Shown one piece after another: positions 6,023 to 33,624 of a DNA stretch of 34,925 nt. Within the stretch, counting starts at the first letter, position 1, and the number at the start of each line of letters is the position of its first letter. Origin of the DNA: Candidatus Woesearchaeota archaeon (GTDB taxonomy: Archaea > Nanobdellota > Nanobdellia > Woesearchaeales > CG1-02-33-12); assembly GCA_018399355.1 (NCBI GenBank), contig JAGYOA010000004.1:1-34925 (forward strand), read 5' to 3'. The position numbers were made by a program, and so were the translations under genes. The notes below the pieces were generated by a model. That model did no database searches and was not told the origin of the DNA. It saw only the letters and a list, made by a program, of their open reading frames with translations.

Positions 6023-7696
6023 CTAAATACCTCTCTTTGTATATTTTGTGTGCAGAAGTTCCTCGGCCTTCTCACTCAAAGGCCTTCCTAAATATTCCTT
6101 GTACAAAAGCTTTATTGCAGGGTTTTCATAGGAGCGTCTTATTATCTTGTTTTCATCATTGACATAAAGGGCCTGCATTCTTTTTTTGATAATTTCTTTA
6201 GTTGTAGGAATCGGCTGGCCTCCTCCTCCAATGCATCCGCCGGGGCAGGACATAACTTCAATAAAGTCATACTTGCACTCTCCTTTTTTTATCTGCTCAA
6301 GAAGCTCTTTTGCATAATGCAATCCATTAACAACAACAAAGGTTAAATCATGGCCATTAATCATTATATTCCCTTCCTTAACATTTTTTAATCCCCTTAT
6401 CTGATTGAACTCAAGGATTTCTAAATCCTTTCCTGTTTCCAGCTCGTAAGCAGTCCTCAATGCCGCTTCTGTTACTCCTCCTGTTGCTCCAAAAAGAGTC
6501 GCGGCTCCTGATGAAATTCCTAAAGGAGCGTCAAAATTATCCTCCTTTAAATTATTAAAGTTTATTCTGTGATTTTTTATCATCCTGGCAAGTTCTCTTG
6601 TTGTTAATACATAATCAACATCTTTGTTTAGTTCTTTTCTCTGTGCTTCAAATTTCTTTGCAGTGCAGGGCATTATACTTACAACAACTGCATTTTTCTT
6701 TTTTATCCTGCTGTTTTCAATATAGTAATTTTTTAAAACTGCCCCAAACATCTCATGAGGGCTCTTGCATGTGGAAACATGATTTAATAATTCTGGATAG
6801 AAATGCTCTATGTATTTTATCCATGCAGGGCAGCATGAGGTTATCATTGGCAGGTTTTTATTTTTTTTAACCCTTTCAACAAGCTCTGTTGCCTCTTCCA
6901 TTATTGTTAAATCAGCCCCAAACTGGGTGTCAAATACTTCTTTAAAACCGAGTTTTCTTAATGCAGACACCATCTTTCCTGTAACTAAAGTTCCTGGTTC
7001 TAATCCAAATTCCTCTCCTAATGAAGCCCTAACAGCAGGGGCTGTCTGGACAAAAACATGCTTGTTTTTCAATGCCTTTTCAACATCTTTTATTGAGTCT
7101 TTCTCATATATTGCATTTACAGGGCAAGCCAAAATACATTGCCCGCAATGAATGCAGACAGAATCATCTATTCTTCCCTCAAAAGCAGGTGTTATTTTCG
7201 TGTGGTATGAACGATATGCAAAGTCAATTGCGTTTACGTTTTGCATCTCACATGCCTGAATGCACTTTCCGCATAAAATGCATTTGTTGTCATCCCTTGC
7301 TATTCCTATTCCTTCATTAGGATTGTGTATCTTTCCTATTGTTGAGAACCTTGTTTGCCTAACTCCTACATCCTTGGCAAGAACGCAAAGCTCATGTTTT
7401 TTTGTTTGTGTAAGATGTTCTTTGTGCTCTGAAATCAAAAGCTCTGTGTTGATTTTCCTTGCTTTTAAAACGCGCTGTGATTCTGTGTCAATAACCATTC
7501 TTTCTTTGACTTTTGTTGAGCATGAAGGCATCATTTTTCCATTAACTTCTACAAGGCAGACGCGGCAAACTGATTTTGGATGAAATCTCTCGCTGTAGCA
7601 TAGAGTTGGAATTTTTATTCCTTGTTTTTTTGCAACCTGAAGTATTGTCTGCTCTTCTTCGCACTTTATTTTTTTTCCATTAAGGGTTATTTTCAT
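6023..7696 (-). CDS. hydA: [FeFe]-hydrogenase group A catalytic subunit
   Basis: H-cluster motifs TSCCPAW, MPCTAKKFE and EVMSCPGGCIGGGGQP. N-terminal [2Fe-2S] (PTLC...CRVC...PSC), 2x[4Fe-4S] (CILCGKC, CIHCGQC), and a fused small-subunit tail. Confidence 0.95.
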   Translation of the reverse strand: MKITLNGKKIKCEEEQTILQVAKKQGIKIPTLCYSERFHPKSVCRVCLVEVNGKMMPSCSTKVKERMVIDTESQRVLKARKINTELLISEHKEHLTQTKKHELCVLAKDVGVRQTRFSTIGKIHNPNEGIGIARDDNKCILCGKCIQACEMQNVNAIDFAYRSYHTKITPAFEGRIDDSVCIHCGQCILACPVNAIYEKDSIKDVEKALKNKHVFVQTAPAVRASLGEEFGLEPGTLVTGKMVSALRKLGFKEVFDTQFGADLTIMEEATELVERVKKNKNLPMITSCCPAWIKYIEHFYPELLNHVSTCKSPHEMFGAVLKNYYIENSRIKKKNAVVVSIMPCTAKKFEAQRKELNKDVDYVLTTRELARMIKNHRINFNNLKEDNFDAPLGISSGAATLFGATGGVTEAALRTAYELETGKDLEILEFNQIRGLKNVKEGNIMINGHDLTFVVVNGLHYAKELLEQIKKGECKYDFIEVMSCPGGCIGGGGQPIPTTKEIIKKRMQALYVNDENKIIRRSYENPAIKLLYKEYLGRPLSEKAEELLHTKYTKRGI

Positions 7697-8814
7697 TTTA
7701 ATTTTTCCTGAAACTCATTTTTAAAATACTTAAACTCTTTCATAATATGGTTTACAGAGGACTGGCCAAGCCCGCATAATGAAGTATCTCCTATAACACC
7801 GCATAATTCCTCTAAAAGCTTGAGATCTTTTCTTTTTGCTTTGCCTAATGAAATTTTCTGCAGCAGCTCAAGAACCCTTATATTTCCTTCCCTGCATGGA
7901 GTGCATTGCCCGCAGCTCTCAAACTCAAAGAATTTTGAGATTATTGCTGAGATATCAAGAATGTTTCTTGTCTCATCAACAAGAATTAATGATGACGCCA
8001 GCATAGCTCCTTTTTTTCTTATCGGCTCACAGTCAAGTATTAAGTTTTCATCATAGGGAATGCATCCGCCATAGCATCCAAAGTAAATTGCCTTTATTTT
8101 GTTTTTTGGTCTTGCCATTTGAATTGCTTTTTTTAATGGAATTCCAAGAGGAAGCTCGTAAACTCCTGGCTTTCGAACATCACCTGAAATGCAAAAGAGT
8201 CTCCAGTTATCATTCCAGTTCTTGTCAGTGAAAATTAAGGGAAGGTTTGCAAGGGTTTCAACATTATCAACCAAAGTAGGCATTGCAAAAAGCCCTTTTC
8301 TTGATGGAAAGGGGGGTTTTATCCTTGGATTTCCCCTTTTGCCCTCTATTGATTCTATGATTGCTGTCTCATCACCGCAGACATATGCTCCTCCCCCTAT
8401 TATTATATGAAAATTAAAGGTTATGTTAATCTTTTTCATTGCTTTTTTTGCAGCTTGAATTGCTTTCTCTATGTTTGGCTTTAGATAAGAATACTGGCCC
8501 CTAAGATAGATATACCCTTCTTCTGAGTTTATTGCCCTTGCAGCAATGAGCATTCCTTCTATTACATTTAAAGGGTTTTTTTTAAGAATAAATCTGTCTT
8601 TAAAGGTTCCGGGCTCGCCCTCATCTGCATTGCATATTATGTATTTTTTTACTCCTTCTCTTGACATTGTCATTTCTATTTTTTCACCAGTTGGAAAATT
8701 AGAGCCTCCTCTTCCTTTAAGTTCTGATTTTTTTATTTTCTCTTTGATTTCCTCTGGACTCATCTGCATTGCTTTTCTCAGCCCATTAAACCTTGTTTTT
8801 CTTAATATTTTCAT
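7693..8814 (-). CDS. hydB: NuoF/HydB-like FMN/NADH-binding diaphorase subunit (short form)
   Basis: GRGGSNFPTG, CNADEGEPGTFKDR, GAYVCGDETA and ESCGQCTPCREG...SLCGLG. Confidence 0.93.
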   Translation of the reverse strand: MKILRKTRFNGLRKAMQMSPEEIKEKIKKSELKGRGGSNFPTGEKIEMTMSREGVKKYIICNADEGEPGTFKDRFILKKNPLNVIEGMLIAARAINSEEGYIYLRGQYSYLKPNIEKAIQAAKKAMKKINITFNFHIIIGGGAYVCGDETAIIESIEGKRGNPRIKPPFPSRKGLFAMPTLVDNVETLANLPLIFTDKNWNDNWRLFCISGDVRKPGVYELPLGIPLKKAIQMARPKNKIKAIYFGCYGGCIPYDENLILDCEPIRKKGAMLASSLILVDETRNILDISAIISKFFEFESCGQCTPCREGNIRVLELLQKISLGKAKRKDLKLLEELCGVIGDTSLCGLGQSSVNHIMKEFKYFKNEFQEKLK

Positions 8815-9296
8815 CTTAACCTTGATATTATCTTTTTTATTTTATGTTCATTTAAATTGCCATAAACTTGATCATTTATCATCATTGCAGGAGATTTGTC
8901 GCAGCAGCCAAGACATGAGACAATTTCCAATGATATCTTTTTGTCTTTTGTTGTCTGGCCTGATTTTATATTTAATAATAACTCAAGAAATTTTATCAGT
9001 GTTACTAAATTATTGAGATAGCAGGAAGGGCTGTTGCATATCCTTATTATGTGTTTTCCCTTTGGCTCTGTGTAAAGCATGTCGTAAAATGTTATTACGC
9101 CGTAAATTGTTGAGAATGGAATCTTTGTTTTTTTAGCTATTTCATGGGCTGTGTTTTTTGAGATATATCCAAATTTTTCCTGTATTTTGTACAATAAAGG
9201 CAGAAGAAGAGGTTTTCCATCAGGCCCTTTAATAACTTCATCTATAATCATGCCAATTTCATCTGAAGACATCATCCACCTCTTTTTTGCGGCCAT
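8811..9296 (-). CDS. hydC: NuoE/HydC-like thioredoxin-fold [2Fe-2S] subunit
   Basis: IQEKFGYI, GVITFY and CNSPSC...CLGCCDKSP; 4-bp start/stop overlap with hydB. Confidence 0.92.
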   Translation of the reverse strand: MAAKKRWMMSSDEIGMIIDEVIKGPDGKPLLLPLLYKIQEKFGYISKNTAHEIAKKTKIPFSTIYGVITFYDMLYTEPKGKHIIRICNSPSCYLNNLVTLIKFLELLLNIKSGQTTKDKKISLEIVSCLGCCDKSPAMMINDQVYGNLNEHKIKKIISRLR

Positions 9297-9388: not shown

Positions 9389-9736
9389 TTATTCTGGAGA
9401 GGAACGTGGAATATCAGATTTCTCCTCTTCAGTCATTCCTTCTATTCCTGTTTTTGCTTCCTCAAACTCTACTTTTTCAATACAACAAACTAATCCTTGA
9501 CCAAGATCTCTTTCTATTTCTGTATCTGTTAAACAATCACTCCTTTTTTCTACTGTGCCTCCTTTTCCAATGCATTGTGCTCTGGCCATTGCCTCAGATT
9601 GTGTTGTATCCTTGTCTTGTCTCCAGGTTCCAATTCCACCTGTAAATATTAATATCAAAACCACCATAACAACCAGCACAATTGCTGCAATCACAATTGC
9701 GTTCATTGGCATGCTTTGCGCTTTTTTGCTTTTCAT
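9389..9736 (-). CDS. Small pilin-like protein (class III signal peptide) with a Cys-rich head
   Basis: MKSKKA|QSMPMNAIVIAAIVLVVMVVLILIF; upstream GGAGGAG RBS. Confidence 0.8.
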   Translation of the reverse strand: MKSKKAQSMPMNAIVIAAIVLVVMVVLILIFTGGIGTWRQDKDTTQSEAMARAQCIGKGGTVEKRSDCLTDTEIERDLGQGLVCCIEKVEFEEAKTGIEGMTEEEKSDIPRSSPE

Positions 9737-9738
9737 TT

Positions 9739-10020
9739 TTATTCTCCTCCTGTAATTTCCTCAGCAGCTGTAACACAACAGACTAGATTGTCTATATTAT
9801 CATCATCAATATGATCGCAGTTACCTTCTATTATATTTCCTTCTGTACATGCACTTTGAGCAACACATTCTCCTCCTTTTGCCTCACACTTTTGGATATC
9901 TCCTACAAAATTGCCCATACTGCCTGTGTATATCAAGATAAGAACTACCATTACTACAAGAACTATGGCCGCAATCACAATTGCATTCATTGGAAGGCCT
10001 TGGCCTCTTTTTTGTTTCAT
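9739..10020 (-). CDS. Small pilin-like protein (class III signal peptide) with a 6-Cys head
   Basis: MKQKRG|QGLPMNAIVIAAIVLVVMVVLILIY; strong GAGGTGA RBS and its own promoter near 10070..10085. Confidence 0.8.
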   Translation of the reverse strand: MKQKRGQGLPMNAIVIAAIVLVVMVVLILIYTGSMGNFVGDIQKCEAKGGECVAQSACTEGNIIEGNCDHIDDDNIDNLVCCVTAAEEITGGE

Positions 10021-10091: not shown

Positions 10092-10571
10092 TTAGCTGCA
10101 TATATCAAGGGTTATAAACAATGTTCCTCTGTCAGTTGGAATAGGGTATGTTTTTGATACTCTGTCTGACCTTGGCCGGCATCTATCTATATTCTCTATT
10201 GTATCTCCTCCTACAGTATATGCCTTGAAATTATATTGCTTTTTCCATTCATCAAGAGTGTTGTTGAAAATATTCCTTGAAACCTGCTGTATTTTACTGC
10301 AGGAGTCCATTCCATCATTGCACTCTATTCTCTGGAATCCTGCGCAGTCCTGAAATAACTCTGTCATAGAACTTTTCTTGCAGTCTGTTGTTGTCTTAAG
10401 CAGAACATTTATCATATTTGATGCAAGCTCTGAATCAACATAATTTTTTTTAGGATCTGAGTCTGAATCATTTAACACAACAAACTTAACAAAAAAAAGC
10501 AAACCAACAGTTATAAGGAGAACTATTATAACCAGCCCCACTATTTCTGCCTGTGATTTTTTTCCAATCAT
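10092..10571 (-). CDS. Class III signal peptide protein (minor pilin-like)
   Basis: MIGKKS|QAEIVGLVIIVLLITVGLLFF followed by a Cys-containing ectodomain. Confidence 0.75.
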   Translation of the reverse strand: MIGKKSQAEIVGLVIIVLLITVGLLFFVKFVVLNDSDSDPKKNYVDSELASNMINVLLKTTTDCKKSSMTELFQDCAGFQRIECNDGMDSCSKIQQVSRNIFNNTLDEWKKQYNFKAYTVGGDTIENIDRCRPRSDRVSKTYPIPTDRGTLFITLDICS

Positions 10572-11075
10572 TTAATCATAAACCTCAACAGTCAATACTC
10601 CAAAACCATAAGAGTTGCTTACAGCATCGTAAAGCGAAACAGGAACTTTTATAGAAGACAAAGCCCTGCTGTTTGTTTTTGTTCTTTCATATATTGTCCA
10701 TTCTGAAACAGAAGGATATATCTTTTTGATATGTATTTTGCTGAATCCAAAGCTATCAAAATAATACTCATTTTTTATCTTTTGATTGGAAGAATCATTA
10801 AGTATGCTAGACAATGCCTCTACTTTTAAAACATCAAAGCAGTCATCAACAACTATGTTTGCAGAAGTGGAAGAAGTGCACTGAAGCTCAGGAAGAAAAG
10901 AAACTAATTGAGCTGTTTGTATTGCCTTAAGCTGAAACTGCTCCTTGCTTGCATCGCTGACAGATGTATTGGCAACTCTTGCATAAAAAATAAGTCCAAA
11001 TCCAATTAATACAAAGAATATAAGAAGCACAGCTATTGTTTCAAACATCTTAATTTGAGCTTTTTTGTTTTTCAT
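10572..11075 (-). CDS. Class III signal peptide protein (minor pilin-like)
   Basis: MKNKKA|QIKMFETIAVLLIFFVLIGFGLIFY. Start moved to the ATG at 11075, next to the upstream gene's stop. Confidence 0.75.
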   Translation of the reverse strand: MKNKKAQIKMFETIAVLLIFFVLIGFGLIFYARVANTSVSDASKEQFQLKAIQTAQLVSFLPELQCTSSTSANIVVDDCFDVLKVEALSSILNDSSNQKIKNEYYFDSFGFSKIHIKKIYPSVSEWTIYERTKTNSRALSSIKVPVSLYDAVSNSYGFGVLTVEVYD

Positions 11076-11076
11076 T

Positions 11077-12051
11077 TTAGTATATTGTTGGGCAGGATGA
11101 TGACTGCAGATAATTATTATATTTTTCAAGACTTTCCTTGGAATCTTTAATATCACCTATATTGTTTATGTTGTAATCAACTGTAAACGGAGTGAGAGGA
11201 TAATAGGACCTACAAATTGTGTTAGAGTATTCTTCTCTTAAAATTTCAGTTCTTTTTCTATAGACCATACTTACAATATTCATTTTTTCCATTGCCTTTT
11301 CCATATTGCACTTGTAATTTTCAGCATCTTGGCTGAACATTGCACCTATGATCATTTCATTTCCAAGATAAGGCATTTTCCTCACAGGCTCAAACCTTAT
11401 TCCTGATTTTTTGTAAAATTCTATCTCATTATTAAGAGAGTCAACATGCACTGCAACAACCTCCTTATCTTTCATGTTGCCTGCAAAATCAGGCAATGAA
11501 ATATCCTCTGGATAAACATTATCAAAAAAAACAAAGCTAAGCTTGTGTCCTGTTTTCCTTAAGCTGGAAACATCATCAATAAGTTCCTTGTTTATTCCTG
11601 TTGGAAGCATTGAATAAATCTCTTTTCCCTTGTCTGAATCCATAATAACATACTTGAAATCAGGAGTGGTTATATAAAGAAAATTAGAGATATGATAGGG
11701 ATAAGCCCATGATAAAGACCAGGTAATCATTGTTCTTCCCTTGATTAAATCAGGAGCAAAAACTATTTTGTTTTTTGTTATGTCGCTTGTTATACTTCCA
11801 ACTGAGATTGAATTGCAGCTTACCTTAATCTCTGTATCTGGAATGCTTATCGGATTCACTGTATTTGCGCTTACCTCTGCACCAGACATTATAGTTTGCA
11901 TATTAGTAAGAATATTGTTTGCTATATTGGTTTCTGAATTGTCTTTAAGCTTTAAAACAACTGAACCAAAAAACAATAATATAAGAACTCCTGCTATTAA
12001 AATGAAAACCCAGTTAAACTGTACATCAATCACCCCTTTTCTTGAACTCAT
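11077..12051 (-). CDS. Class III signal peptide protein
   Basis: MSSRKG|VIDVQFNWVFILIAGVLILLFF. Start moved to the ATG at 12051. Confidence 0.75.
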   Translation of the reverse strand: MSSRKGVIDVQFNWVFILIAGVLILLFFGSVVLKLKDNSETNIANNILTNMQTIMSGAEVSANTVNPISIPDTEIKVSCNSISVGSITSDITKNKIVFAPDLIKGRTMITWSLSWAYPYHISNFLYITTPDFKYVIMDSDKGKEIYSMLPTGINKELIDDVSSLRKTGHKLSFVFFDNVYPEDISLPDFAGNMKDKEVVAVHVDSLNNEIEFYKKSGIRFEPVRKMPYLGNEMIIGAMFSQDAENYKCNMEKAMEKMNIVSMVYRKRTEILREEYSNTICRSYYPLTPFTVDYNINNIGDIKDSKESLEKYNNYLQSSSCPTIY

Positions 12052-12073: not shown

Positions 12074-15000
12074 TTACTTTTTCTTTTTCTTGTATTTTTT
12101 AAGCTCTGCAGTTGCAACTACAGATAATTTTTCAAAAACATCCTTTGGTCTTTTTTCTTTCTTTGAAGCTGGTTTTTTTGTTTTCTTTGAAGATACAGTT
12201 TTAGTTGTTTTCTTTTTAGTTGTTTTCTTTTTTTCTGTTTTTTCAGGTTGTTTTAAAGTTTCTGTTTTTCCAATATCCATTCTTGAATGTATCTTGCTTC
12301 CTGCATCGCTCTTAGGAGAAGAAAAGGTGCTGAAAATCTTGTCATGTTCCTTAAACCTCTCCCTATCTTTTCTTAAATTATCCATTGCCTGTTTTCTTCT
12401 TAATTCAATTGAACTTTCATGAGGAGTTAATGAAGGAGGAGGTCTGTAAGAATTTCCTGGGTTTGGTTTTGGTTGAATTGGCTTAAAGTTTGTTGTTGTG
12501 AATGAACTTGTTGGCTTGGTTTTTTTCTTTTTGTTTTTAAAAACAAGAAGATATAATAACCCTGATACCAAAAAGATTATTCCAATTATTAAAAGGAACC
12601 ATGGCCAAAATCTTGATTCTGAAACATCTGGTTCATCATCTATTGGTTCTTCTTTTATATGTTCATCAGATGTTGGTTTTGAGGGAGTAGGAGGTGTATA
12701 TTCCTCACATCTGTTAAATTCATTGCAATATCCTGACTCACAATCGGATTTTTCATCACATTTCTTACCTATAGCACATTTTTTATCTTTAAATTCTGCG
12801 CAGTATCCCCCACAGTCAACATCTGTTTCATCTTCATCTAATTTATTGTTTGAGCATGAATCCACTCCAATGCAAATGCCATCACATTTTCCTGAAGTGC
12901 AGTCTGAATTATCCTCACATTCCTTTCCTTCTATGCATGGATCACAAGATCCTCCACAGTCAGTATCTGTTTCATCGCCGTTTTTTACACCATCAAAACA
13001 GCTTGGCTCTGCGCACATATTGCTTGAGTTGCAAAAACCGCTATGGCAGTCACTATCTTCTGAACAATTTTTTCCCAATCCACATTCAGGGCAAATTCCT
13101 CCTCCGCAGTCAGTATCTGTTTCATATCCATTCTGTATATCATCATAGCATGTTGCAGGTTTTTTCAATGAATCAACAATAACCCCATCACTTTGTCCTG
13201 GCTGGCCTACTGATCCTGCCCTATTTGATGCTTTTACAAAAAAGAAATATTTTGTTCCTTCTGTAAGGTTAAGGTCTTCTTTATTATGGTCTTGGTCAAC
13301 CCAAATAAACATATCTTCATCATGGCTTTTTGTCCAGTTAACAATAATATTTTCTGATTCATCCTGTATTTTATAAAGGAAGTAATCAACTCCTGATAAT
13401 GGCCTTTCATACAATTCCCATTTAGCTCTTATCTTGTTTGTGTAGTAAGAATATTCAGGGAAATCATCTATGTTGCTTGTATCATCAACTACTGGTATGT
13501 TTACAGGCGCTGTATCAACAATAAATTGCGCTACTTCATTTGCGCTATTTCCGCCACTATGGCACTCTACATGATAAGTATGTGTGCCATCATTAAGATT
13601 ACTTATGGTTGTCTTATGCTCATATCCTCCTGAACCTAATCTTTCTTCTATATTGGAGGAAGTATTGCCGTAGAAACATTCTGAGTCCTTGTTTGTTTTT
13701 ACTTCTAAATAAACATAAGACTCATTGTTGTATTTTTTTGTGATTATTTCAATTTCAATTTCTGCATCAAGATCAACATTAACTGTTATTTCTTTTGTAT
13801 CAGATACAATCTCTGCCCTGTTCATGCATGCTACATAGTAAGAATATGAATTCTTTTCTTCGCTGTCTATGGTAATTGTTGCCTGATGGGCATCTTTGAA
13901 TATATTTTTATCAAAATCAGGAAATTTATTTTCCATCAGCTCATAATCCTGTTCTGTTGTATCATACCTACATATTGTTTTGTCATCAGTTCCAACAACT
14001 AGTACAGTTTCAAGAGGATATTCAATTATTTTTGGCGCATAATAAGTGTGTATAACTGGTTTTGAAGAATCCACTGAAAGCTCAAAATTATATGTGTTTC
14101 CGTCCGCATCCCAATAACCATCATAACATTTAACATAAAGTTTAGTTGTTTTTCCTTCAATTAATTCATAATCTGTTTTTTTGTGCTCTTCTCCTCCTGT
14201 AATTTCAAAATCAATCATATGCTTGTAGTTTAATATTCTATCATAATATTTGCATTCTGCATCATGGTCTGTTAACAGAACTATATCAAATGGGCTTTTG
14301 TCTGAAACGCCGTAACTAGGCTCAGCAAGTTCTATGTAAGGTCTGCACTCTCCCCCTAAATCAACAACAACCTCTCCTATTTGTTCATCTTTTTCCTTGT
14401 TAAAGCAGAGTATGTCTCTTGTGCACGCAGGGTCATCTTTGGTTATTTGAACAGAATCATCATAATCATTGCAGTCTAATCCCAGGCAATAACCATCTTC
14501 ATCATTATCTATTGCCTCTCCTTTTTCATTAACCTCGCAGCCCAAAGGAGTCCACTCTTCTTCATCAATAGGATTCAACACTTCATCTCCATCCTGATCA
14601 GGGTCAAATTCATCAGGATTTCCATCTCCATCATAATCGCTCATGCAAACCCCTTCCCAACAGGCATATCCTTCCCCACAGTCTGAATCTTCCTCACAAT
14701 CTGAATCAGGGCAAGTGCATTCATCTGTGCATCTTCCAGGGCAGGCATCATCATCTGTTCCGTCACATTCCTCAAGCCCTTCTCTTATATTATTCTGACA
14801 TTCAGAAGGAATTTCCCTGCATGTTAGGTCTCCAAGGCATTCATAACCTTCAGGGCATGGACATGCTACACAATCATAAGACAATTCACCATCACGGCAG
14901 AATTGGGATGTTGTCTCATTACATTCTCCATCCTTTGTTCCGTCTTCGCAATCTCTAGGTTCAGTTTGAAATTCGCAATGGCTTACATCAAGCCATTCTG

Positions 15001-16282
15001 ATTCATAGGCATCGTAATTTGATTGTCCTTCTGGATATTGAGGATAAAGGCGAAACATTATTTTTCCTGTAAGGTGTTCAACACATTCGCTTTCAGTTAA
15101 ATAATAAAAGGCAACAAAAAAAGAATTCCCTTCAACAGATGTTTCAGATAGAGTAACATCTACATCACATGAGCCGTCTTCTCCTCCTGTGCCATCCTCA
15201 TCATAAAATAAATCAATTTCATATGAAATAGCCTCTTCATATTCTCCCCAAGTGAGAAGTACATAATCGCAGCTTTCTAAGGTTGCCTTGAAATCTGCGG
15301 CTGTAACTGCAATTTCCTCGCATGATAAGGTTGTAGGATTATAAATTTTTCCAGGGGGGCAGTAAGCGCAGCATTTATTATTCCCTTCAAATGTTGTTCC
15401 TCCATTTTCTATTTTGCACCATTCGTCTGATGGTTCTCCAATGGAATATGATTTCCAAATAACATCATTACCTAAATCATAATTTGAGCAGTTTGTACTG
15501 CATGAAGAAAATCCAGTTTCAATATAACTTGATAATGAACTCATATCAAGGTTGAAGGGAAGACCTGAATTATTTTCGCATGAATCACATACGGGAGCCC
15601 CCACACATTTTTGCGCTTTTGAGCAGTAATATGTTTTTGGTGGGCAGTATATGCAACAATGTGTTCCCTGACCTGAACATAGAGTGCACCAATCACTTGT
15701 TCCTAAATTATATTCAACTAGATTAGGAGCATCTGGACACCCATATGCACATGTGGCAAATCCTTCTCCTACTGAAGATTCATCATAATCAACTAAAGAT
15801 ATAGCGCCAGAACCACATCCTCCTTGTTCCATAGTGCATGGAGTAACGCATGGAACAGAACAGCAGTTAGGACAACCATCAGGAGGATTAACCCAACAGT
15901 CTGGACAAACATCATTTCCCGTGCATTTATAACCTTCATATGGTGAATCACCACAACTTTTTGGAACGCACCAGCTATCACAAGTTTCATCTACAATATT
16001 TCCTTCATCATCATAAACATTTTTACAATTACATGTGCCTGAACGTTTCATATTATCTGGGCAAGAACTAAAACATGCTGCATCTAAAGGAGGATCATAT
16101 GGCGCAGGGTTTGATGCTTCGCAGAAACCTTCACAAGTTTCATCTGGTGGTGTGAGTTCCTCCTCAGGAGTAGAAGGAGAGTTATTAAAAAGTAACCATA
16201 ATATCCCCCCAATACCTAAAACTACTACAGCAGTTAAAGGATCAAATCCTTTTTTGTTTTTTCTGATCTTTCTAAGATACAT
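12074..16282 (-). CDS. Giant Cys-rich cell-surface (adhesin-like) protein
   Basis: KNKKG|FDPLTAVVVLG N-terminus, many Cys repeats, DxDxDG Ca-binding-like motifs, Ig-like stretches, 3 ETDxDCGG repeats, a C-terminal TM helix and a Lys-rich tail. The start at 16282 (upstream AGAGGA) is preferred; 16333 is possible. Confidence 0.85.
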   Translation of the reverse strand: MYLRKIRKNKKGFDPLTAVVVLGIGGILWLLFNNSPSTPEEELTPPDETCEGFCEASNPAPYDPPLDAACFSSCPDNMKRSGTCNCKNVYDDEGNIVDETCDSWCVPKSCGDSPYEGYKCTGNDVCPDCWVNPPDGCPNCCSVPCVTPCTMEQGGCGSGAISLVDYDESSVGEGFATCAYGCPDAPNLVEYNLGTSDWCTLCSGQGTHCCIYCPPKTYYCSKAQKCVGAPVCDSCENNSGLPFNLDMSSLSSYIETGFSSCSTNCSNYDLGNDVIWKSYSIGEPSDEWCKIENGGTTFEGNNKCCAYCPPGKIYNPTTLSCEEIAVTAADFKATLESCDYVLLTWGEYEEAISYEIDLFYDEDGTGGEDGSCDVDVTLSETSVEGNSFFVAFYYLTESECVEHLTGKIMFRLYPQYPEGQSNYDAYESEWLDVSHCEFQTEPRDCEDGTKDGECNETTSQFCRDGELSYDCVACPCPEGYECLGDLTCREIPSECQNNIREGLEECDGTDDDACPGRCTDECTCPDSDCEEDSDCGEGYACWEGVCMSDYDGDGNPDEFDPDQDGDEVLNPIDEEEWTPLGCEVNEKGEAIDNDEDGYCLGLDCNDYDDSVQITKDDPACTRDILCFNKEKDEQIGEVVVDLGGECRPYIELAEPSYGVSDKSPFDIVLLTDHDAECKYYDRILNYKHMIDFEITGGEEHKKTDYELIEGKTTKLYVKCYDGYWDADGNTYNFELSVDSSKPVIHTYYAPKIIEYPLETVLVVGTDDKTICRYDTTEQDYELMENKFPDFDKNIFKDAHQATITIDSEEKNSYSYYVACMNRAEIVSDTKEITVNVDLDAEIEIEIITKKYNNESYVYLEVKTNKDSECFYGNTSSNIEERLGSGGYEHKTTISNLNDGTHTYHVECHSGGNSANEVAQFIVDTAPVNIPVVDDTSNIDDFPEYSYYTNKIRAKWELYERPLSGVDYFLYKIQDESENIIVNWTKSHDEDMFIWVDQDHNKEDLNLTEGTKYFFFVKASNRAGSVGQPGQSDGVIVDSLKKPATCYDDIQNGYETDTDCGGGICPECGLGKNCSEDSDCHSGFCNSSNMCAEPSCFDGVKNGDETDTDCGGSCDPCIEGKECEDNSDCTSGKCDGICIGVDSCSNNKLDEDETDVDCGGYCAEFKDKKCAIGKKCDEKSDCESGYCNEFNRCEEYTPPTPSKPTSDEHIKEEPIDDEPDVSESRFWPWFLLIIGIIFLVSGLLYLLVFKNKKKKTKPTSSFTTTNFKPIQPKPNPGNSYRPPPSLTPHESSIELRRKQAMDNLRKDRERFKEHDKIFSTFSSPKSDAGSKIHSRMDIGKTETLKQPEKTEKKKTTKKKTTKTVSSKKTKKPASKKEKRPKDVFEKLSVVATAELKKYKKKKK
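12813..13125 (-). repeat. Three coding repeats (ETDxDCGG module, period 144-150 bp)
   Basis: CAGTCAGTATCTGTTTCAT at 12957..12975 and 13107..13125, with a 2-mismatch copy at 12813..12831. Confidence 0.85.
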
Positions 16283-16372: not shown

Positions 16373-17620
16373 TTAAATAATTGAAAATGCCTCTCCACTC
16401 ACATACACATTGAATGTTTGGCAATCTCTGTTGTTTGTATTGGTTTTTTCATGCGCGCAAACATTTAATTCAACAAATTTTTTTTCAAAATCTGGGTCTC
16501 TGACTATGTAAGGCAATTCAGGCGAATATGTAAATATTATCTCATCCTCATCAGGGTCATCTGCAATAGGATTTATGTGCTCTTTGGTTATCCTTGCTCC
16601 TGTTATAGCTTCTAAACCAGAAAATATAATGGTTGGTAAGTAAATGAAACGCAGCGCAGGGGGTCTGTTCTCCCGGGCAAACCTGAATTCATAAGGCTCT
16701 GTGTAAAGCAGTGAATTATTATCATAAACAATGATTATATCTTCATCTTCATAAACATTTTTTTCTCTGGATACTCTCATCCCTTCCTTAAGTTTAGGTG
16801 AATCTGGGTTAGTTATGTTAAACAATATGTCTGTTATATCCTTGTTTATTGTAAATTCTGTTAAATCATAAATTTTTCTTAATCTTATTTCAGGGTTTGA
16901 ATAAAAATAACTGACATTTGTTTCCATTCCTATTGATTTCTTTTCTATTAAGAGAGGATATTCAAGGATGGAAAAAACTTCATCTTCTGTAATTATAAAA
17001 GATATATTTATTTTTCCTTCATTTATATAAAATCCCTGATTTTCAAATATACTGAAGTTAATATTTTTCTCAAGATAATTAAGGATATAATGTTCCATTT
17101 GCGCCCTGATTGAAATTGCTGAACTGTTTAAATCAGGCAGGTTACTTTTACCAAAAAAACCTGAAAACCTTGGATTTCTGCCAAGAGTGGTTTCTGCAAG
17201 ATAGGGATAAAATTTCCATGGGTAAAGGGGAGTATCTGGGAAATAATAATTTTTTATTATTTCATTTTCTTTTTCTATGCAGTATGAAACATTATGCCTG
17301 TCTTCATAAGTGGGAGTAGATGTATCATAAGTTATAAATTTTGAAGGATCAGGAATAGGCCCACCCTGGCTTTCATAGATATAACCTCCCTGTCTTCCAA
17401 TTAAGTAAAGGCCTTTTTTGGTTGCATCATCAAGCTGTGTTGTTATATAATTTGTTACTGGAAGTGCTTCTTTTGGGATTTTCTGTGCTTTTATTATTCC
17501 TTCCTGGCTTATTTGTTTGTATGATGAGCCTTTAAAATAAAAGTAAATAATTGCTGATGCAAGTAGAATAATACCTAGAATTATGTAAACTGTTACCTGT
17601 CCCCTCTTTTTTTTAAGCAT
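16373..17620 (-). CDS. Class III signal peptide protein with a C-terminal Ig/cadherin-like domain
   Basis: MLKKKRG|QVTVYIILGIILL; C-terminal ENRPP...DDPDEDEIIFTY motif. Confidence 0.75.
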   Translation of the reverse strand: MLKKKRGQVTVYIILGIILLASAIIYFYFKGSSYKQISQEGIIKAQKIPKEALPVTNYITTQLDDATKKGLYLIGRQGGYIYESQGGPIPDPSKFITYDTSTPTYEDRHNVSYCIEKENEIIKNYYFPDTPLYPWKFYPYLAETTLGRNPRFSGFFGKSNLPDLNSSAISIRAQMEHYILNYLEKNINFSIFENQGFYINEGKINISFIITEDEVFSILEYPLLIEKKSIGMETNVSYFYSNPEIRLRKIYDLTEFTINKDITDILFNITNPDSPKLKEGMRVSREKNVYEDEDIIIVYDNNSLLYTEPYEFRFARENRPPALRFIYLPTIIFSGLEAITGARITKEHINPIADDPDEDEIIFTYSPELPYIVRDPDFEKKFVELNVCAHEKTNTNNRDCQTFNVYVSGEAFSII

Positions 17621-23758: not shown

Positions 23759-25777
23759 ATGGATGCTTCAGAGCAAATAAAAAGATTTTATAATTTTCTT
23801 GAAAAAAATTATCAGGATAAACTTCTGGAAAATATCAGAAGAGGGAAAAACTTCCTTATCATGGATTTTTCCAAGCTTTCTATGTTTGACCATGAACTCG
23901 CTGAAGAGATTCTTGAGCAGCCAGAAGAAACAATAAAGGCAGCTGAGATAGCAGTTGAGCAGTTTGAATTGCCTAGCCCCATAAAAAGATTCAGAATAAG
24001 ATTAACTAATATACCTGAAGACCAAACAGTTGCAATAAGACATATAAGAGCAATGCATATAGGAAAACTTATTGTTTCAAAGGGGATTGTAAGGCAATCC
24101 TCTGATGTAAGGCCTCAGACTGTATCAGCAAAGTTTGAATGTCCAAGCTGTGGCAACACAATTTCTATATTGCAGACAGGCCAAAAATTCAAAGAGCCAA
24201 CAAGATGTTCATGTGGAAGAAAGGGAAAATTCAGGCTTTTAAGCAAGGAGCTTGTTGACTCACAGCGTATTGTTGTTGAGGAAGCACCTGAATTTCTTGA
24301 TGGAGGAGAGCAGCCAAAGCGTATATCTGTTTTCTTAAGAGAAGACCTTGTAGAACCAGTAATGGAAAGAAAAACCACTCCTGGAAGCAAAATTTTAATA
24401 GCAGGAATATTAAAAGAGCTTCCAATTAATTTAAGAGAAGGGGGAACTTCAACAAGGTTTGATATTATTATTGAAGCAAATTATATAGAGCCAATAGAAG
24501 AAACATTTGAAACTATTGATATAAGTGAAGAAGATGAAAAAGAAATAATAAGCCTTTCAGAAGATCCTAAGATATATGAAAAGCTTGTAAAAAGCATTGC
24601 TCCTTCTGTTTATGGCCACGAAGACATAAAAGAGGCTCTTGTTCTGCAGTTAATGGGGGGAGTGAAAAAAGAAAGAAATGACGGCACAATAACAAGAGGA
24701 GATATGCATATCCTTCTTGTTGGTGACCCAGGAGCTGCAAAAAGCACCCTTCTTATATTTATGTCGCATGCAGCCCCAAAGGCAAGATATGTTGCTGGAA
24801 GAGGTGCAAGCGGAGCTGGATTAACTGCATCTGTTGTAAGAGATGAATTTTTAAGAGGATGGGCTCTTGAAGCAGGAGCAATGGTTCTGGCTAATGGTGG
24901 TTATTGTATGATAGATGAAATGGACAAGATGAGCACAGAAGACAGGTCTGCGCTGCATGAAGCATTATCACAGCAAAAAATCAGTATAAGCAAGGCAAAC
25001 ATACAGGCAACCTTAAGGGCAGAAACAACTGTCTTGGCTGCAGCAAACCCTAAATTTGGGAGGTTTGATCCTTATCAGCCAATTGCCCAGCAGATTGATT
25101 TGCCTCCTGCATTGATAAACAGGTTTGACTTAATATTCCCTGTAAGAGACCTGCCAAGCAGGGAAGTTGATGATAAGATTGCAAGCCATGTTTTAAATAT
25201 TCAGCAGAGTATGAATATAAGAGAGCCTGATATATCAATACCTTTACTTAAAAAATATGTCGCTTATGCCAAGCAAACCATAAAACCAAAGCTTACTGAC
25301 AGTGCAATAGAGGAAATAAAAAATTTTTATGTTGAGCTTAGGAATATGGGTACAGATGAAGAGGGAATAAGGCCAATCCCTATATCAGCAAGGCAGCTTG
25401 AGGCCTTAGTCAGATTTGCAGAGGGTTCAGCAAAGGTAAGACTGTCAAAAAAAGTTACAAAATCAGATGCAAAAAGAGCAATAAGAATCCTTAAATACTG
25501 TCTTATGCAAGTCGGTTTTGATTATGAAACTGGCCGCATTGATATTGACAGGATTTCAACAGGAATTCCTGCAAGTCAGAGAAGCAGAATAGTGCAGGTT
25601 AGGGAAATAATAAATGAGCTTGAAGGCACATTCGGAAAAACAATTCCATTGGAAGATATAATAAGCTCTGCCTCTGAAAAAGGAATAGAGGAAGCAGAGG
25701 TTGAAGAAATAATAGAAAGGCTTAAACGCTCAGGAGATATATTTGAGCCAAAAAGAAATTTTTTAAGCAAGCTTTAA
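23759..25777 (+). CDS. mcm: Replicative helicase MCM
   Basis: Zinc finger CPSC...CSC, Walker A GDPGAAKS, Walker B IDEMDK, AAANP, arginine finger NRFD and a C-terminal wHTH. Confidence 0.97.
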   Translation: MDASEQIKRFYNFLEKNYQDKLLENIRRGKNFLIMDFSKLSMFDHELAEEILEQPEETIKAAEIAVEQFELPSPIKRFRIRLTNIPEDQTVAIRHIRAMHIGKLIVSKGIVRQSSDVRPQTVSAKFECPSCGNTISILQTGQKFKEPTRCSCGRKGKFRLLSKELVDSQRIVVEEAPEFLDGGEQPKRISVFLREDLVEPVMERKTTPGSKILIAGILKELPINLREGGTSTRFDIIIEANYIEPIEETFETIDISEEDEKEIISLSEDPKIYEKLVKSIAPSVYGHEDIKEALVLQLMGGVKKERNDGTITRGDMHILLVGDPGAAKSTLLIFMSHAAPKARYVAGRGASGAGLTASVVRDEFLRGWALEAGAMVLANGGYCMIDEMDKMSTEDRSALHEALSQQKISISKANIQATLRAETTVLAAANPKFGRFDPYQPIAQQIDLPPALINRFDLIFPVRDLPSREVDDKIASHVLNIQQSMNIREPDISIPLLKKYVAYAKQTIKPKLTDSAIEEIKNFYVELRNMGTDEEGIRPIPISARQLEALVRFAEGSAKVRLSKKVTKSDAKRAIRILKYCLMQVGFDYETGRIDIDRISTGIPASQRSRIVQVREIINELEGTFGKTIPLEDIISSASEKGIEEAEVEEIIERLKRSGDIFEPKRNFLSKL

Positions 25778-25778
25778 A

Positions 25779-26465
25779 ATGCCAGAACCTCAAAAAAGAC
25801 AAATTGCGTGTAAGGTGCGCGTTTCAGACCTCACTGAAGGAGATTATATAAAAGAAGAGGGATGGAACCCTAATTATATTTTTACAAAAAAAGGAGAAAA
25901 AATATCAAGGGTAAATCTGATTGCAGCAGTAATATCTATAAATAATGAAGGTAGTTATAATTCTGCGGTTGTTGATGACGGCACTGGAAGTATTTCATTA
26001 AGGTCTTTTGAGGAAAATCAGCAAATAAAAAGTCTTGATGTTGGTGATGTTGTTTTAGTTGTGGGCAGGCCAAGAGAGTATGGTTCTGAAAAATATATTA
26101 TGCCTGAAATAATAAAAAAAATTGAAAACAAAAAATGGATTGATGTAAGAAAACTAGAGCTTGATATAGAAGAAAATAAGAAGAAAGAACTTAAAGAAGA
26201 TATAAAGGAAAAACAAGATACAAAAAAAGAAAAAGAATATGCAGTTGAAGAGATTGATGAAAACACAAAATCAGAAAATAATATGGGAAAAGACCATGAA
26301 ACTGTTTACAATAAGGTTAAGGAGCTGGATAAGGGCGATGGAGCAGATATTGATGAAATAATAAAAAAATCTAAATTAAGCAATGCTGAGGAAATAATAA
26401 AAAAGTTTATGATGGAAGGAGAGATGTTTGAGATAAGGCCCGGTAAAATAAAAATCTTAGAATAA
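25779..26465 (+). CDS. RPA2/RPA32-like OB-fold plus winged-helix protein
   Basis: SRVNL, VDDGTGSI and VLVVGRPREY OB fold, a charged linker, and the EGEMFEIRPG wHTH end. Confidence 0.8.
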   Translation: MPEPQKRQIACKVRVSDLTEGDYIKEEGWNPNYIFTKKGEKISRVNLIAAVISINNEGSYNSAVVDDGTGSISLRSFEENQQIKSLDVGDVVLVVGRPREYGSEKYIMPEIIKKIENKKWIDVRKLELDIEENKKKELKEDIKEKQDTKKEKEYAVEEIDENTKSENNMGKDHETVYNKVKELDKGDGADIDEIIKKSKLSNAEEIIKKFMMEGEMFEIRPGKIKILE

Positions 26466-27314
26466 TAAAGGAGTCACATAAACCTCAAGGAGAGCTGCGA
26501 ATAATAAAATTACTATTGCAATTATCACTAAGTTTGAAGTATCAAGAAGTATTTTCTCGTATTTTTTTGTTCCAAGGTCATGATTTATGACTGCTATTGA
26601 GATTACTGAGCCTGCTATTCCTCCAATAAAATAAGCTGCAATCTCTGGTATTCCATGAAGTGCGTATCTCAGTAAGCCAATTGGTACAGCGGCAAAATAA
26701 TGTGCTATTGATGTGTATCCTAGTTCTGCTGCTCTGTTGCTTATGTTTATTCTTATGAAGCTTCCAATTGCAGCTCCAATCACCGAGGCATTCCAGGTAA
26801 GAATGAATATTGCGCCAAGCCCGTATATGAAAGCAAATATAATGCAAAAAACCAAAACCTTTAGGTTATTTGAAAATATAGCCCAAAAAATATTAAGACC
26901 ATAATAAAAATTTCCTGTGACACTTGAGTTTATGCTTGCTATAGTCTGGCTTTGCACTGAAAATGCATGTTGGGCCATATCATTAGGAAGCAGGGCATAA
27001 GCCAAAGAGAATGTTATTACAAAACCAATAAAAAGAAAAATAAGAAAAGAAAGCACCTTCCAGTGTTCTTTTAACAGGGTTACCTCATCATCCACAACCA
27101 TATCTTTTTTTTCTTCTAATTTTATTATATTATAAATTAAAGGGGCGCAGACAAGTGCAGTTAAAAAAACCATAACCAAGCTAACATATTCAGCAAAAAC
27201 CCAATAACTTAAAAATAGTGCAACTCCTGAATATAACATTCCAATAAAAATCATGTGCCAAGGTTTTCTTTCAGCTGTAATAGGATTTATTATTGTTTCC
27301 AGAACCATATCCAA
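26457..27314 (-). CDS. SpoIIM-family membrane protein
   Basis: IFSNNLKV, WNASVIG, HGIPEI and AALLEVYVTP motifs. Confidence 0.85.
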   Translation of the reverse strand: MDMVLETIINPITAERKPWHMIFIGMLYSGVALFLSYWVFAEYVSLVMVFLTALVCAPLIYNIIKLEEKKDMVVDDEVTLLKEHWKVLSFLIFLFIGFVITFSLAYALLPNDMAQHAFSVQSQTIASINSSVTGNFYYGLNIFWAIFSNNLKVLVFCIIFAFIYGLGAIFILTWNASVIGAAIGSFIRINISNRAAELGYTSIAHYFAAVPIGLLRYALHGIPEIAAYFIGGIAGSVISIAVINHDLGTKKYEKILLDTSNLVIIAIVILLFAALLEVYVTPLLF

Positions 27315-27397
27315 TATTTTTTCTGTGAAATTTATATATGTTTTGTTTTTTGATTTTCAGATAAATTTATATATCAACCAGGGTTCCACTAAGTAAA

Positions 27398-27805
27398 ATG
27401 GATTATGAAGAAATGCTGAAAAAAGCGAGAAAAGAGCTTCCTGATATAAAAAAAAGTGAAGAAAGGCTGGAAATTCCTAAAGTATTGGGCCACATACAGG
27501 GGAATAAAACAGTTATATCAAACTTCCACCAGATAGCAAATGTTTTGGGAAGAAAGCCTGAGCATCTTTTAAAATACCTTCTTAAAGAGCTTGCCACTCC
27601 TGGAAGTCTCAAGACCAATGCCCTTATTTTGGGTAGAAAGATTTCTGCACGGCTAATAAATGAAAAAATTACAAGTTATGTTGAATTGTTTGTGGTTTGC
27701 CATGAGTGCAAAAGGCCTGACACAAAGATAGTAAAAGAGGGAAGTGTAACATTTATGAAATGTCTTGCATGCGGCGCAAGGCACCCTATAAAAACAAAAA
27801 TATAA
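27398..27805 (+). CDS. eif2b: Translation initiation factor 2 beta subunit
   Basis: GNKTVISNF, KYLLKELAT, CHECKRPDT and CLACGA. Confidence 0.95.
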   Translation: MDYEEMLKKARKELPDIKKSEERLEIPKVLGHIQGNKTVISNFHQIANVLGRKPEHLLKYLLKELATPGSLKTNALILGRKISARLINEKITSYVELFVVCHECKRPDTKIVKEGSVTFMKCLACGARHPIKTKI

Positions 27806-27806
27806 A

Positions 27807-28106
27807 ATGATAGTGAAAAAGCATGTTGTTGAAGGAGGAAGACTTATTCTTTGTGTTTGTGATGAAGACATAATTGGAAGAAAATTTCATACAGATGATT
27901 TCAAGCTTGATTTAAGCTCTGATTTCTACAAAGGTGAGAAAAAAACAGAGCAGGAAACAATAAACTTAATTGAGGCAGCTTATATGGTAAATCTTGTGGG
28001 AAATAAATCAGTTGATCTTGCATTAACATTAAACATAATATCAAAACAGGATATAATCAAAATAGATAATATTCCTTATGTCCAGGCAGTAAGCATGGAA
28101 AATTAA
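27807..28106 (+). CDS. DUF424 family protein
   Basis: CVCDEDIIG, FYKGE, NLVGNKSV and IPYVQ. Confidence 0.85.
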   Translation: MIVKKHVVEGGRLILCVCDEDIIGRKFHTDDFKLDLSSDFYKGEKKTEQETINLIEAAYMVNLVGNKSVDLALTLNIISKQDIIKIDNIPYVQAVSMEN

Positions 28107-28109
28107 ATT

Positions 28110-28415
28110 TTAAATAATTAATGTTCTTATTATTAAATATATGATTATTCCTCCAATTAATTCAGTTACTGGATGGATTATTGATATTTTTTTATTGCAA
28201 CACCTAGTTCTGCCTTTTAAAATTATATAATTTATAATTGGAAGATTTTTATGCCAAAAGGATATTTCTTTTCCACAATTTTCACAATAGCATTTAAATA
28301 AACTCCCAATTTTATGGTTCTTAAATAGTCTATAGGCTAAAGTGTTGATTGAACCCATCATAATAATACATAAACACAATAAAATTAAATTGGAAATTAT
28401 TGTTTTTATAACCAT
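28110..28415 (-). CDS. Stand-alone prepilin peptidase (PilD) N-terminal Cys-rich domain
   Basis: GS-INTLAYRL...CENCGKEI...NLPIINYIILKGRTRCCNKKIS..HPVTEL matches the bacterial peptidase A24 N-domain; there is no protease domain. Confidence 0.72.
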   Translation of the reverse strand: MVIKTIISNLILLCLCIIMMGSINTLAYRLFKNHKIGSLFKCYCENCGKEISFWHKNLPIINYIILKGRTRCCNKKISIIHPVTELIGGIIIYLIIRTLII

Positions 28416-28452
28416 TTTGTTTAATTTTTTCTGTGGCTAATAAACATTGAAA

Positions 28453-31998: not shown

Positions 31999-31999
31999 T

Positions 32000-33592: not shown

Positions 33593-33624
33593 TTTTTAGG
33601 TAAGAAGAGCTTATCTTGATTAAT

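Follow-up and report, generated by a model that had tools for sequence, protein, structure and literature searches.

Tandem pilin-like proteins with a predicted beta-defensin-type head in a Woesearchaeales archaeon

Two small genes lying end to end in an archaeal genome raise the question of what a head resembling an animal defensin is doing on a protein that begins like a type IV pilin. The genes lie in the window, by which we mean the whole stretch of 34,925 nt analysed here; it is contig C34 of a 918-kb genome that is 97.5% complete. Mini-pilin gene A (9739..10020, minus strand) encodes 93 aa, comprising a class III-like leader, a hydrophobic helix, a six-Cys head and a short acidic tail. 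Mini-pilin gene B (9389..9736, minus strand) encodes 115 aa, with leader and helix as in gene A, a longer linker, a four-Cys head and a 30-residue acidic tail at the C terminus. The first-pass annotation had the coordinates of both ORFs right. They are 2 nt apart, and purine-rich GAGGTG and GGAGGAG stand immediately 5' of the two ATGs. P0002/P0024-type homologs show the same tandem arrangement. A promoter and terminator scan of the locus, which relies on a bacterial consensus, yielded nothing useful.

Genes A and B are the last two of seven co-oriented minus-strand genes, and in each of them a short basic leader at the N terminus is followed by hydrophobic residues. Upstream of them follow pilin-like genes of 159 aa (cluster 7, 10092..10571) and 167 aa (cluster 8, 10572..11075), both with a class III-like leader and each present in 10 of the 17 regions that we compared, cluster 7 being the conserved upstream neighbour. 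A 324-aa pilin-like gene (cluster 4, 11077..12051) and a Cys-rich surface protein of 1402 aa and 94 Cys, which has a class III-like leader and ends in a membrane segment (cluster 5, 12074..16282), recur in 11 of the 17 regions each. The first gene of the run (16373..17620; 415 aa, class III-like leader) was otherwise seen in G004 only. No Pfam match above the curated cut-off and no NCBIfam match at E<=0.001 was obtained for the seven-gene run (the Pfam scan took in the window ORFs other than ORF 28110-28415). The 1402-aa protein is a candidate adhesin or anchor; two of its homologs carry bacterial TSP3 repeats, and near its own N terminus there are several CC-ending Cys clusters that the head profile described below misses. 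Downstream of the mini-pilins lies a three-gene [FeFe]-hydrogenase operon (6023-9296, minus strand) encoding an Fe_hyd large subunit, a Nuo51/NADH-binding subunit and a 2Fe-2S thioredoxin-like subunit. At 23759-34836 the window holds a replication cluster (MCM, an OB-fold protein, aIF-2beta, PolD DP2 and DP1, Cdc6/Orc1), and the end of the contig may be close to a replication origin.

The head of gene A (C45-C82; 9775..9888, minus strand), re-read from the ORF, is C45-x6-C52-x5-C58-x9-C68-x12-C81C82, with GGxC at C2 and GxC at C4. That of gene B (C55-C85; 9482..9574, minus strand) has C55, C68, C84 and C85, with Val62 at C1+7 and Leu78 at C3+10, and its middle Cys is best taken as C3. Both readings agree with the first-pass annotation, which had proposed that gene B lost C2 and C4 together. 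The Val at C2 is unambiguous from the C-x4-GG-x-V register. The Leu at C4, on the other hand, cannot be fixed from the A/B pair alone, because the C3-C5 loop of gene B is 7 residues shorter than that of gene A; Leu78 gives a gap-free fit to the C-6-C-5-C-9-C-5-CC spacing of the close homologs P0005 and P0007. We infer gene B to be a derived copy, in which a dispensable C2-C4 bond has been shed.

The two genes belong to a large, unannotated and unnamed family that is found order-wide. The 93-aa protein was matched in 58 of 61 related genomes; gene A has 27 homologs, itself included, and the named ones are from Woesearchaeota/Nanoarchaeia. At class level, a full-length profile found matches in 225 of 251 genomes, and at the 20 other-order loci inspected the common part was the N-terminal helix only, the heads being different. 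At these loci (L121-L140) the helix is followed by C-x3-C-type heads, usually beside a 55-65-aa Cys-free pilin-like gene. With the head profile, 126 of the 301 genomes examined at phylum level gave matches, and 7 of the 126 belong to other orders. Six of these 7 were fetched: one has the head in small pilin-like carriers, three in secreted repeat proteins of 606-611 aa, one in a subtilase and one in a 507-aa repeat protein. Within these other-order proteins (L179-L183) the defensin-type module occurs in 2-3 copies in the 606-611-aa proteins, in about 7 copies in the 507-aa protein and once in the secreted 1540-aa subtilase (L182).

The analyses below use 353 complete members from the same order, drawn from metagenomic proteins and from 147 genomes that represent 75 families. 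Set 1 retained 248 of 300 matches, after removal of 33 from other orders, 12 open ones, 6 on length and 1 with X. Set 2 retained 105 of 106 and was recruited by an N-terminal-only profile at loci that had been chosen by head-profile matches, and is thus enriched in six-Cys heads. Counting the fetched stretches, at least two members occur in 113 of the 147 genomes; in the genome studied here the head profile finds no second copy, the 1402-aa neighbour included. When the head alignment was used in word-seeded searches of proteins, no match emerged from 4292 candidates of 103-2000 aa or from 22 of 21-102 aa; as known members were missed too, these searches are uninformative. In the ESM Atlas the whole protein retrieved unnamed archaeal clusters only (best 0.94, 1377 members), and the head alone gave no usable named match. 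A pattern scan of GTDB contigs returned three loci, two from named Woesearchaeota and one a weak 20-residue match in Lachnospiraceae.

Heads other than the single six-Cys type also occur on the family helix. Some members are double-headed (P0021, L063, L190, L213). A second recurrent head, C-x35..43-C-x7..11-C-x4..5-C followed by an aromatic residue, was seen 17 times in set 2 and is probably helical; it stands in tandem with a six-Cys member, for example at L051, L056, L058, L097, L104 and several of L191-L238. In the genome studied here, a gene on another contig (G000:C2:9378-9671, or L240:4979-5272) joins a family-type leader and helix to a four-Cys head that is a TSP3-like, Asp-rich repeat (E 1.5e-4, below the cut-off). 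Heads thus seem exchangeable on the mini-pilin helix.

The number of Cys after the helix is even in 351 of 353 members (246/248 in set 1, 105/105 in set 2). Single defensin-type heads number 295, of which 242 have six Cys, 42 have four with the terminal CC, 9 have four with a lone last Cys, and one each has two and five; the other 58 members carry tandem heads, extra Cys pairs or a different head. Chance does not account for this pairing: if Cys were lost independently at the observed per-site rate of 0.06, about 79 odd-Cys heads would be expected among the 295 and one is seen, a disparity whose significance is overstated by kinship. The middle Cys of the four-Cys/CC heads fits C3 in 38 of the 41 tested (the remaining three fit C4 or C2 better), which means that C2 and C4 were lost together. 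Genome loci supply 33 of the 42 heads in this class, spread over 26 genomes in 20 families, and the 22 residues recorded in place of the lost C2 include no His. Set 1 contains five lone-Cys heads, whose inner two Cys fit C2 and C4, so that here C3 was lost with one Cys of the CC pair. The register of the lone Cys in all nine such heads is C5 in six, a tie in one where spacing favours C5, and leaning to C6 in two, as judged by a flanking-residue profile that recovered 276/284 and 239/284 control cases, the controls lying within its training data. One of the family heads, L106, aligns without gaps to L057 and has Tyr at C6.

In alpha-defensins C3 pairs with C5, while the C2-C4 bond is common to the alpha and beta types. 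The C2-C4 pairing put forward in the first-pass annotation recurs well beyond this locus, in 42 members, yet the A/B pair by itself does not discriminate between the two types. What does separate them is the joint loss of C3 and C6, the complementary class brought out by the Cys covariation check. Its 9 members, which come from 6 families and 7 genomes, favour C3-C6 over C3-C5 and support the full 1-5/2-4/3-6 pattern that had been suggested from gene A and gene B. Once C2-C4 and C3-C6 are set, C1-C5 would follow by elimination. At the level of sequence, then, paired Cys loss implies the bonds C1-C5, C2-C4 and C3-C6, the pattern by which trans-defensins are defined (PMC7203481). Two heads run counter to it: the five-Cys L107 lacks C6 and keeps C3, and in the two-Cys L005 the score is slightly higher for C6 (3.1 vs 1.5), as would befit the alpha type. 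This two-Cys variant was considered as direct proof of C1-C5 and dropped, its register being ambiguous. On an N-terminal tree built from 45 columns, with 119 of 215 inner branches open, C2/C4 loss accounts for 26 state changes and C3/C6 loss for 5; scattered as it is over a weak tree, C2/C4 loss appears to have been repeated, the exact count lying beyond the resolution of the tree.

Spacing is conserved at the start of the head, where C1 and C2 are 6 residues apart in 117 of 172 heads and G stands two residues ahead of C2 in 137 of 172; further on, the loops range over the family from 2 to 33 residues (C3-C4) and from 2 to 31 (C4-C5). The genome studied here has no Pfam match to VKOR, DsbA or DsbD. 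It does encode a protein (G000:C27:2513-3634, or L239:1014-2135) in which weak matches place a glutaredoxin-like CPHC domain beside a DsbD/CcdA-like membrane domain, and this fusion is a candidate redox partner for Cys-rich surface proteins.

A profile of 126 heads, compared with 177,635 PDB sequences, gave 28 matches at E<=10, all 28 to proteins of the beta-defensin fold and none to an alpha-defensin. The best were to tick carboxypeptidase inhibitor (E 6.9e-5; three entries at E<0.001) and big defensin (1.7e-3); platypus DLP, hBD-1, hBD-3 and Gallinacin-11 were matched as well. In the reverse direction, Pfam at E<=0.1 assigned Defensin_beta to 12 and Inhibitor_I68 to 8 of the 126 heads, and the single head of the window, searched alone, reached a best E of 0.68. 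Much of the profile match may stem from the spacing of the Cys and from the GGxC motif. An AF2 model of the head from the 126-row alignment (pLDDT 73.8, pTM 0.52) predicts a short helix and three strands (H7-10, E12-16, E24-29, E41-46). Against 48,161 chains, VIA placed 30 at Z>=2, the top two being hBD-2 and, from crocodile, CpoBD13 (both Z 4.0, with 36 residues aligned at rmsd 2.0-2.5; hBD-2 at 2.0), with five alpha-defensins lower at Z 2.5-2.9. Of these 30 rows, 28 are defensins or defensin-like, including cnidarian peptides and crotamine, which we take to be defensin-like; the exceptions are Cypridina luciferase and an acetyltransferase. The N-terminal part of the luciferase (PDB 24nk/24ne, residues 29-73) aligns to the head model with 31-36% identity at Z 2.6, and that enzyme may contain an unnoticed defensin-like module. 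The top 12 Foldseek matches all belong to the beta-defensin family, although the best E, 0.45, is not significant. Low structural scores are expected for domains of about 40 residues. The lines of evidence overlap, since all lean on the cysteines and AlphaFold has been exposed to many defensins. Profile search and structural comparison nevertheless point the same way as the beta-defensin-like fold first suggested for these heads, and the modelled head very probably has that fold.

The heads resemble the animal trans-defensins of beta-defensin fold (hBD-1, hBD-2, CpoBD13, the C-terminal domain of big defensin, tick carboxypeptidase inhibitor; PF00711, PF14862, PF10468) in having six Cys with a CC end, C1-x6-C2, G two before C2, a predicted helix with three antiparallel strands and the inferred 1-5/2-4/3-6 bonds, as well as in their tandem gene arrays and double-headed forms. 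Unlike their animal counterparts, they are carried on a pilin-type leader and helix and not on a cleaved prepro-region, are acidic, have loops of much wider length range, and have often lost whole disulfides. According to a 2020 review, trans-defensins arose only in animals (PMC7203481). For a 40-residue Cys-rich domain, profile E-values of 7e-5 to 2.6 are compatible with either homology or convergence with animal defensins. We regard it as improbable that the scaffold is an old prokaryotic surface module, truly homologous to animal trans-defensins, that Woesearchaeales use as a hypervariable recognition head on a hydrolase-bearing filament attacking bacteria. Laterosporulins and bacterial cis-defensins are likewise prokaryotic Cys-rich peptides resembling defensins (PMC13487149, PMC11561630). 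They differ from the present heads in that laterosporulins are soluble antimicrobials with other Cys patterns, laterosporulin 10 being described there without a terminal CC, and the cis class is CS-alpha-beta; neither group appears among the head-profile, Foldseek or VIA matches.

The pilin-like character resides in the N terminus. A [KR][GAS] site precedes the helix in 298 of 353 members (55 lack the pattern), and Gln is at +1 in 186 of the 298 sites, genes A and B among them (K-R-G|Q and K-K-A|Q). In gene A the basic leader (10003..10020, minus strand) is 6 residues long, with a K-R-G end followed by Gln +1 at the predicted prepilin-peptidase cleavage site. Position +5 is mostly Leu, Met or Ile, and Glu is absent from its eight commonest residues. 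AlphaFold predicts, for the full-length protein, a continuous 32-residue helix from residue 11 to 42 (9895..9990, minus strand), hydrophobic in its N-terminal part and running straight into the head, with pLDDT 95-96 at residues 11-30. Codons 10-30 of genes A and B differ at 12 synonymous and no non-synonymous positions, which indicates that the helix is under purifying selection; with 12 of 21 codons differing synonymously, recent gene conversion is ruled out as the cause of the identical helices. Among 233 pairs of within-genome paralogs, median identity is 0.54 in the helix vs 0.21 at the non-Cys positions of the head. The genome itself encodes an A24 peptidase (C9:2077-2931; PF01478 and PF06847), an ATPase (C1) and TadC-like proteins (C1 and C25), and no assembly genes adjoin genes A and B. 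Other pilin candidates, of the E+5 type, lie on C1, beside the ATPase/TadC locus, and on C2. Leader, helix, gene context and machinery thus support the pilin identity assumed at the outset, which lacks a profile match: genes A and B matched no pilin in Pfam, NCBIfam or PDB sequences, and a full-length fold search retrieved generic helices only.

Among known pilins, the closest in kind are the Epd pilins of M. maripaludis (MMP1685, MMP1283, EpdA-C; EppA substrates, T4F system 1), which share with the mini-pilins a short basic leader with a Gly/Ala end, Gln at +1, a hydrophobic helix, small size and genes set apart from the ATPase and platform genes. Unlike Epd pilins, the mini-pilins lack Glu at +5 and PF04021/DUF361, their head is a disulfide knot, and sequons for N-glycosylation are few (49 of 353 members); the PF04021 matches of this genome are two other genes, on C2. 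The heads of the Haloferax volcanii PilA pilins are beta-sandwiches. PilA1-6 are similar to the mini-pilins in that several paralogs share a conserved helix at the N terminus, diverge in the head and have their genes apart from those of the ATPase (PMC4858521, PMC3875500), and differ in being larger; we found no sequence match between the two groups. Judged by sequence, genes A and B would resemble short type IV pilins yet lack the +5 Glu and DUF361 by which Epd pilins are recognised (PMC3875500). Within Nanobdellati, 1990 genomes are reported to encode pilin subunits of T4F system 1 (PMC13705601).

Comparison of the 17 regions shows that the mini-pilins are usually in tandem within a series of class III signal-peptide genes that is itself conserved, hereafter the island. 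Its order, found whole or in part, is the giant Cys-rich protein, clusters 4, 8 and 7, the mini-pilins, clusters 9, 2, 6, 11 and 3, RPA, YdjM and RadA. In the genome studied here the island appears split between the window and C2, where a pilin-like run (C2:7759-14179; L240), equated with the second half of the island by its layout, ends in a 372-aa SLT lytic transglycosylase protein and is followed by RPA, YdjM and a RadA-like gene. Since G004 (L162) has the same mini-pilin/hydrogenase junction, the break would be one of this family. The 372-aa SLT protein itself has a pilin-like basic leader and hydrophobic N terminus; two further SLT matches occur in this genome, on C56 and C23. Among 69 neighbour proteins scanned, five, from five genomes, carry SLT, M23, M15 or amidase domains. 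Nanoarchaeota have been reported to possess peptidoglycan hydrolases, and Woesearchaeota to possess murein transglycosylases (PMC12352652, PMC9723730). A bacterium is a plausible target of the surface structure, because the other half of the island ends in a pilin-like lytic transglycosylase.

Our best explanation, held with moderate confidence, is that genes A and B encode very small type IV pilin-like proteins, globular only in a disulfide knob of predicted beta-defensin fold, and that these proteins are minor, variable components of a filament on the cell surface by which host or prey cells are gripped or recognised. The A24 peptidase would remove the 6-residue leader at the predicted site, and the helix would pack in the filament core or in a tip complex. 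The knob would then face outward as a protease-resistant, stable scaffold whose loops could vary freely, and might provide recognition of host or prey, with tandem paralogs broadening or switching the specificity of binding.

A rather unlikely alternative is that genes A and B are the major pilins of a thin, Epd- or Flp-like filament, with the knob as a stabilising coat and its variation reflecting escape from viruses or proteases. Sizes of 79-115 aa are close to the 74 aa of MMP1685, a major pilin of M. maripaludis (PMC3875500), the Epd major pilin is described as lacking a globular domain (PMC13705601), and the multi-copy family with its highly conserved helix would suit such a role. The lack of Glu at +5, the separate E+5 candidates beside the ATPase/TadC locus and the position of genes A and B among numerous pilin-like genes, each in single copy and arranged as if in an operon, argue against it. 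Such an arrangement is the usual layout for minor-pilin or tip complexes.

Still less probable, in our view, is that the proteins do not polymerise and are class III surface proteins anchored in the membrane, comparable to the sugar-binding proteins of Sulfolobus, with the knob inhibiting or regulating an enzyme. Its targets could be the peptidoglycan hydrolases of the island, which it would shield or tune, or host proteases. Consistent with this idea, tick carboxypeptidase inhibitor is the best profile match, double-headed members exist, and the head also occurs in the secreted subtilase; moreover, in animal rusticalin a cell-wall peptidase is combined with two such repeats (PMC6339383). Ascidians, corals and placozoans have rusticalin-like proteins with Cx6Cx6-7Cx8Cx7CC repeats with a predicted beta-defensin/TCI-like fold (PMC6339383), and, unlike the animal proteins, which are secreted with the enzyme in the same chain, the present system has the enzyme as a separate pilin-like gene and the module on a membrane helix. 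Against an inhibitor stand the poorly conserved head surfaces, which are not those expected for a fixed target, and the conservation of the helix residue by residue, which exceeds the needs of a plain anchor.

It is very unlikely that the heads serve to attack bacteria as antimicrobial or membrane-active defensins, whether they stay on the cell surface or are set free, even with a predicted defensin-like fold, peptidoglycan hydrolases in the neighbourhood and a predatory lifestyle proposed for Woesearchaeota (PMC9723730). Net charge from first to last Cys is -8 in gene A and -2 in gene B (-11 and -8 from residue 34 onward), as the acidity noted in the first-pass annotation had indicated. Over the family the median is -2; 76% of 246 heads and 82% of 105 are negative, and 3 of 351 reach +3 or above. 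The heads are not cationic antimicrobials, and their acidity argues against cationic killing. Unlike antimicrobial beta-defensins, the head is not a soluble released peptide: it is tethered to a helix that this type of leader leaves attached, and no conserved release site occurs in the alignments. The family-wide acidity agrees with the non-antimicrobial role first suggested, and the adhesive part of that suggestion we would keep as a possible function. Equally improbable is that the defensin likeness is superficial, the Cys binding metal or forming another knot and the matches reflecting spacing alone: the low fold scores, the lack of a clear Dsb system and an [FeFe]-hydrogenase suggestive of anoxic life speak for it, and against it the strict pairwise Cys loss in two complementary classes, the absence of His at the lost C2, a leader that implies an extracellular location, and PDB profile matches free of any unrelated Cys-rich family.

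In the literature that we searched, outside subscription journals, no description of archaeal mini-pilins with defensin-type heads was found, and bioRxiv 10.64898/2026.05.13.725050 contains no mention of pilin or defensin; an arCOG that includes these genes could be present in tables S3-S5 of PMC13705601. The mini-pilins are thus, within that literature, an undescribed archaeal pilin-like variant with a beta-defensin-type module, and neither an antimicrobial defensin nor an Epd pilin. Genes A and B contribute a natural paralog lacking C2 and C4, and their relatives a test of the disulfide pattern by two classes of paired loss; together the natural variants with six, four and two Cys amount to a map of the disulfides that the fold can lose. 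An order-wide family of archaeal trans-defensin-like heads would represent a striking case of convergence or else a hint as to where the fold came from. In Woesearchaeales, whose T4F genes are reported to be scattered and hard to assign (PMC13705601), the mini-pilin family offers concrete candidate subunits for host attachment, set in an island that includes cell-wall hydrolases.
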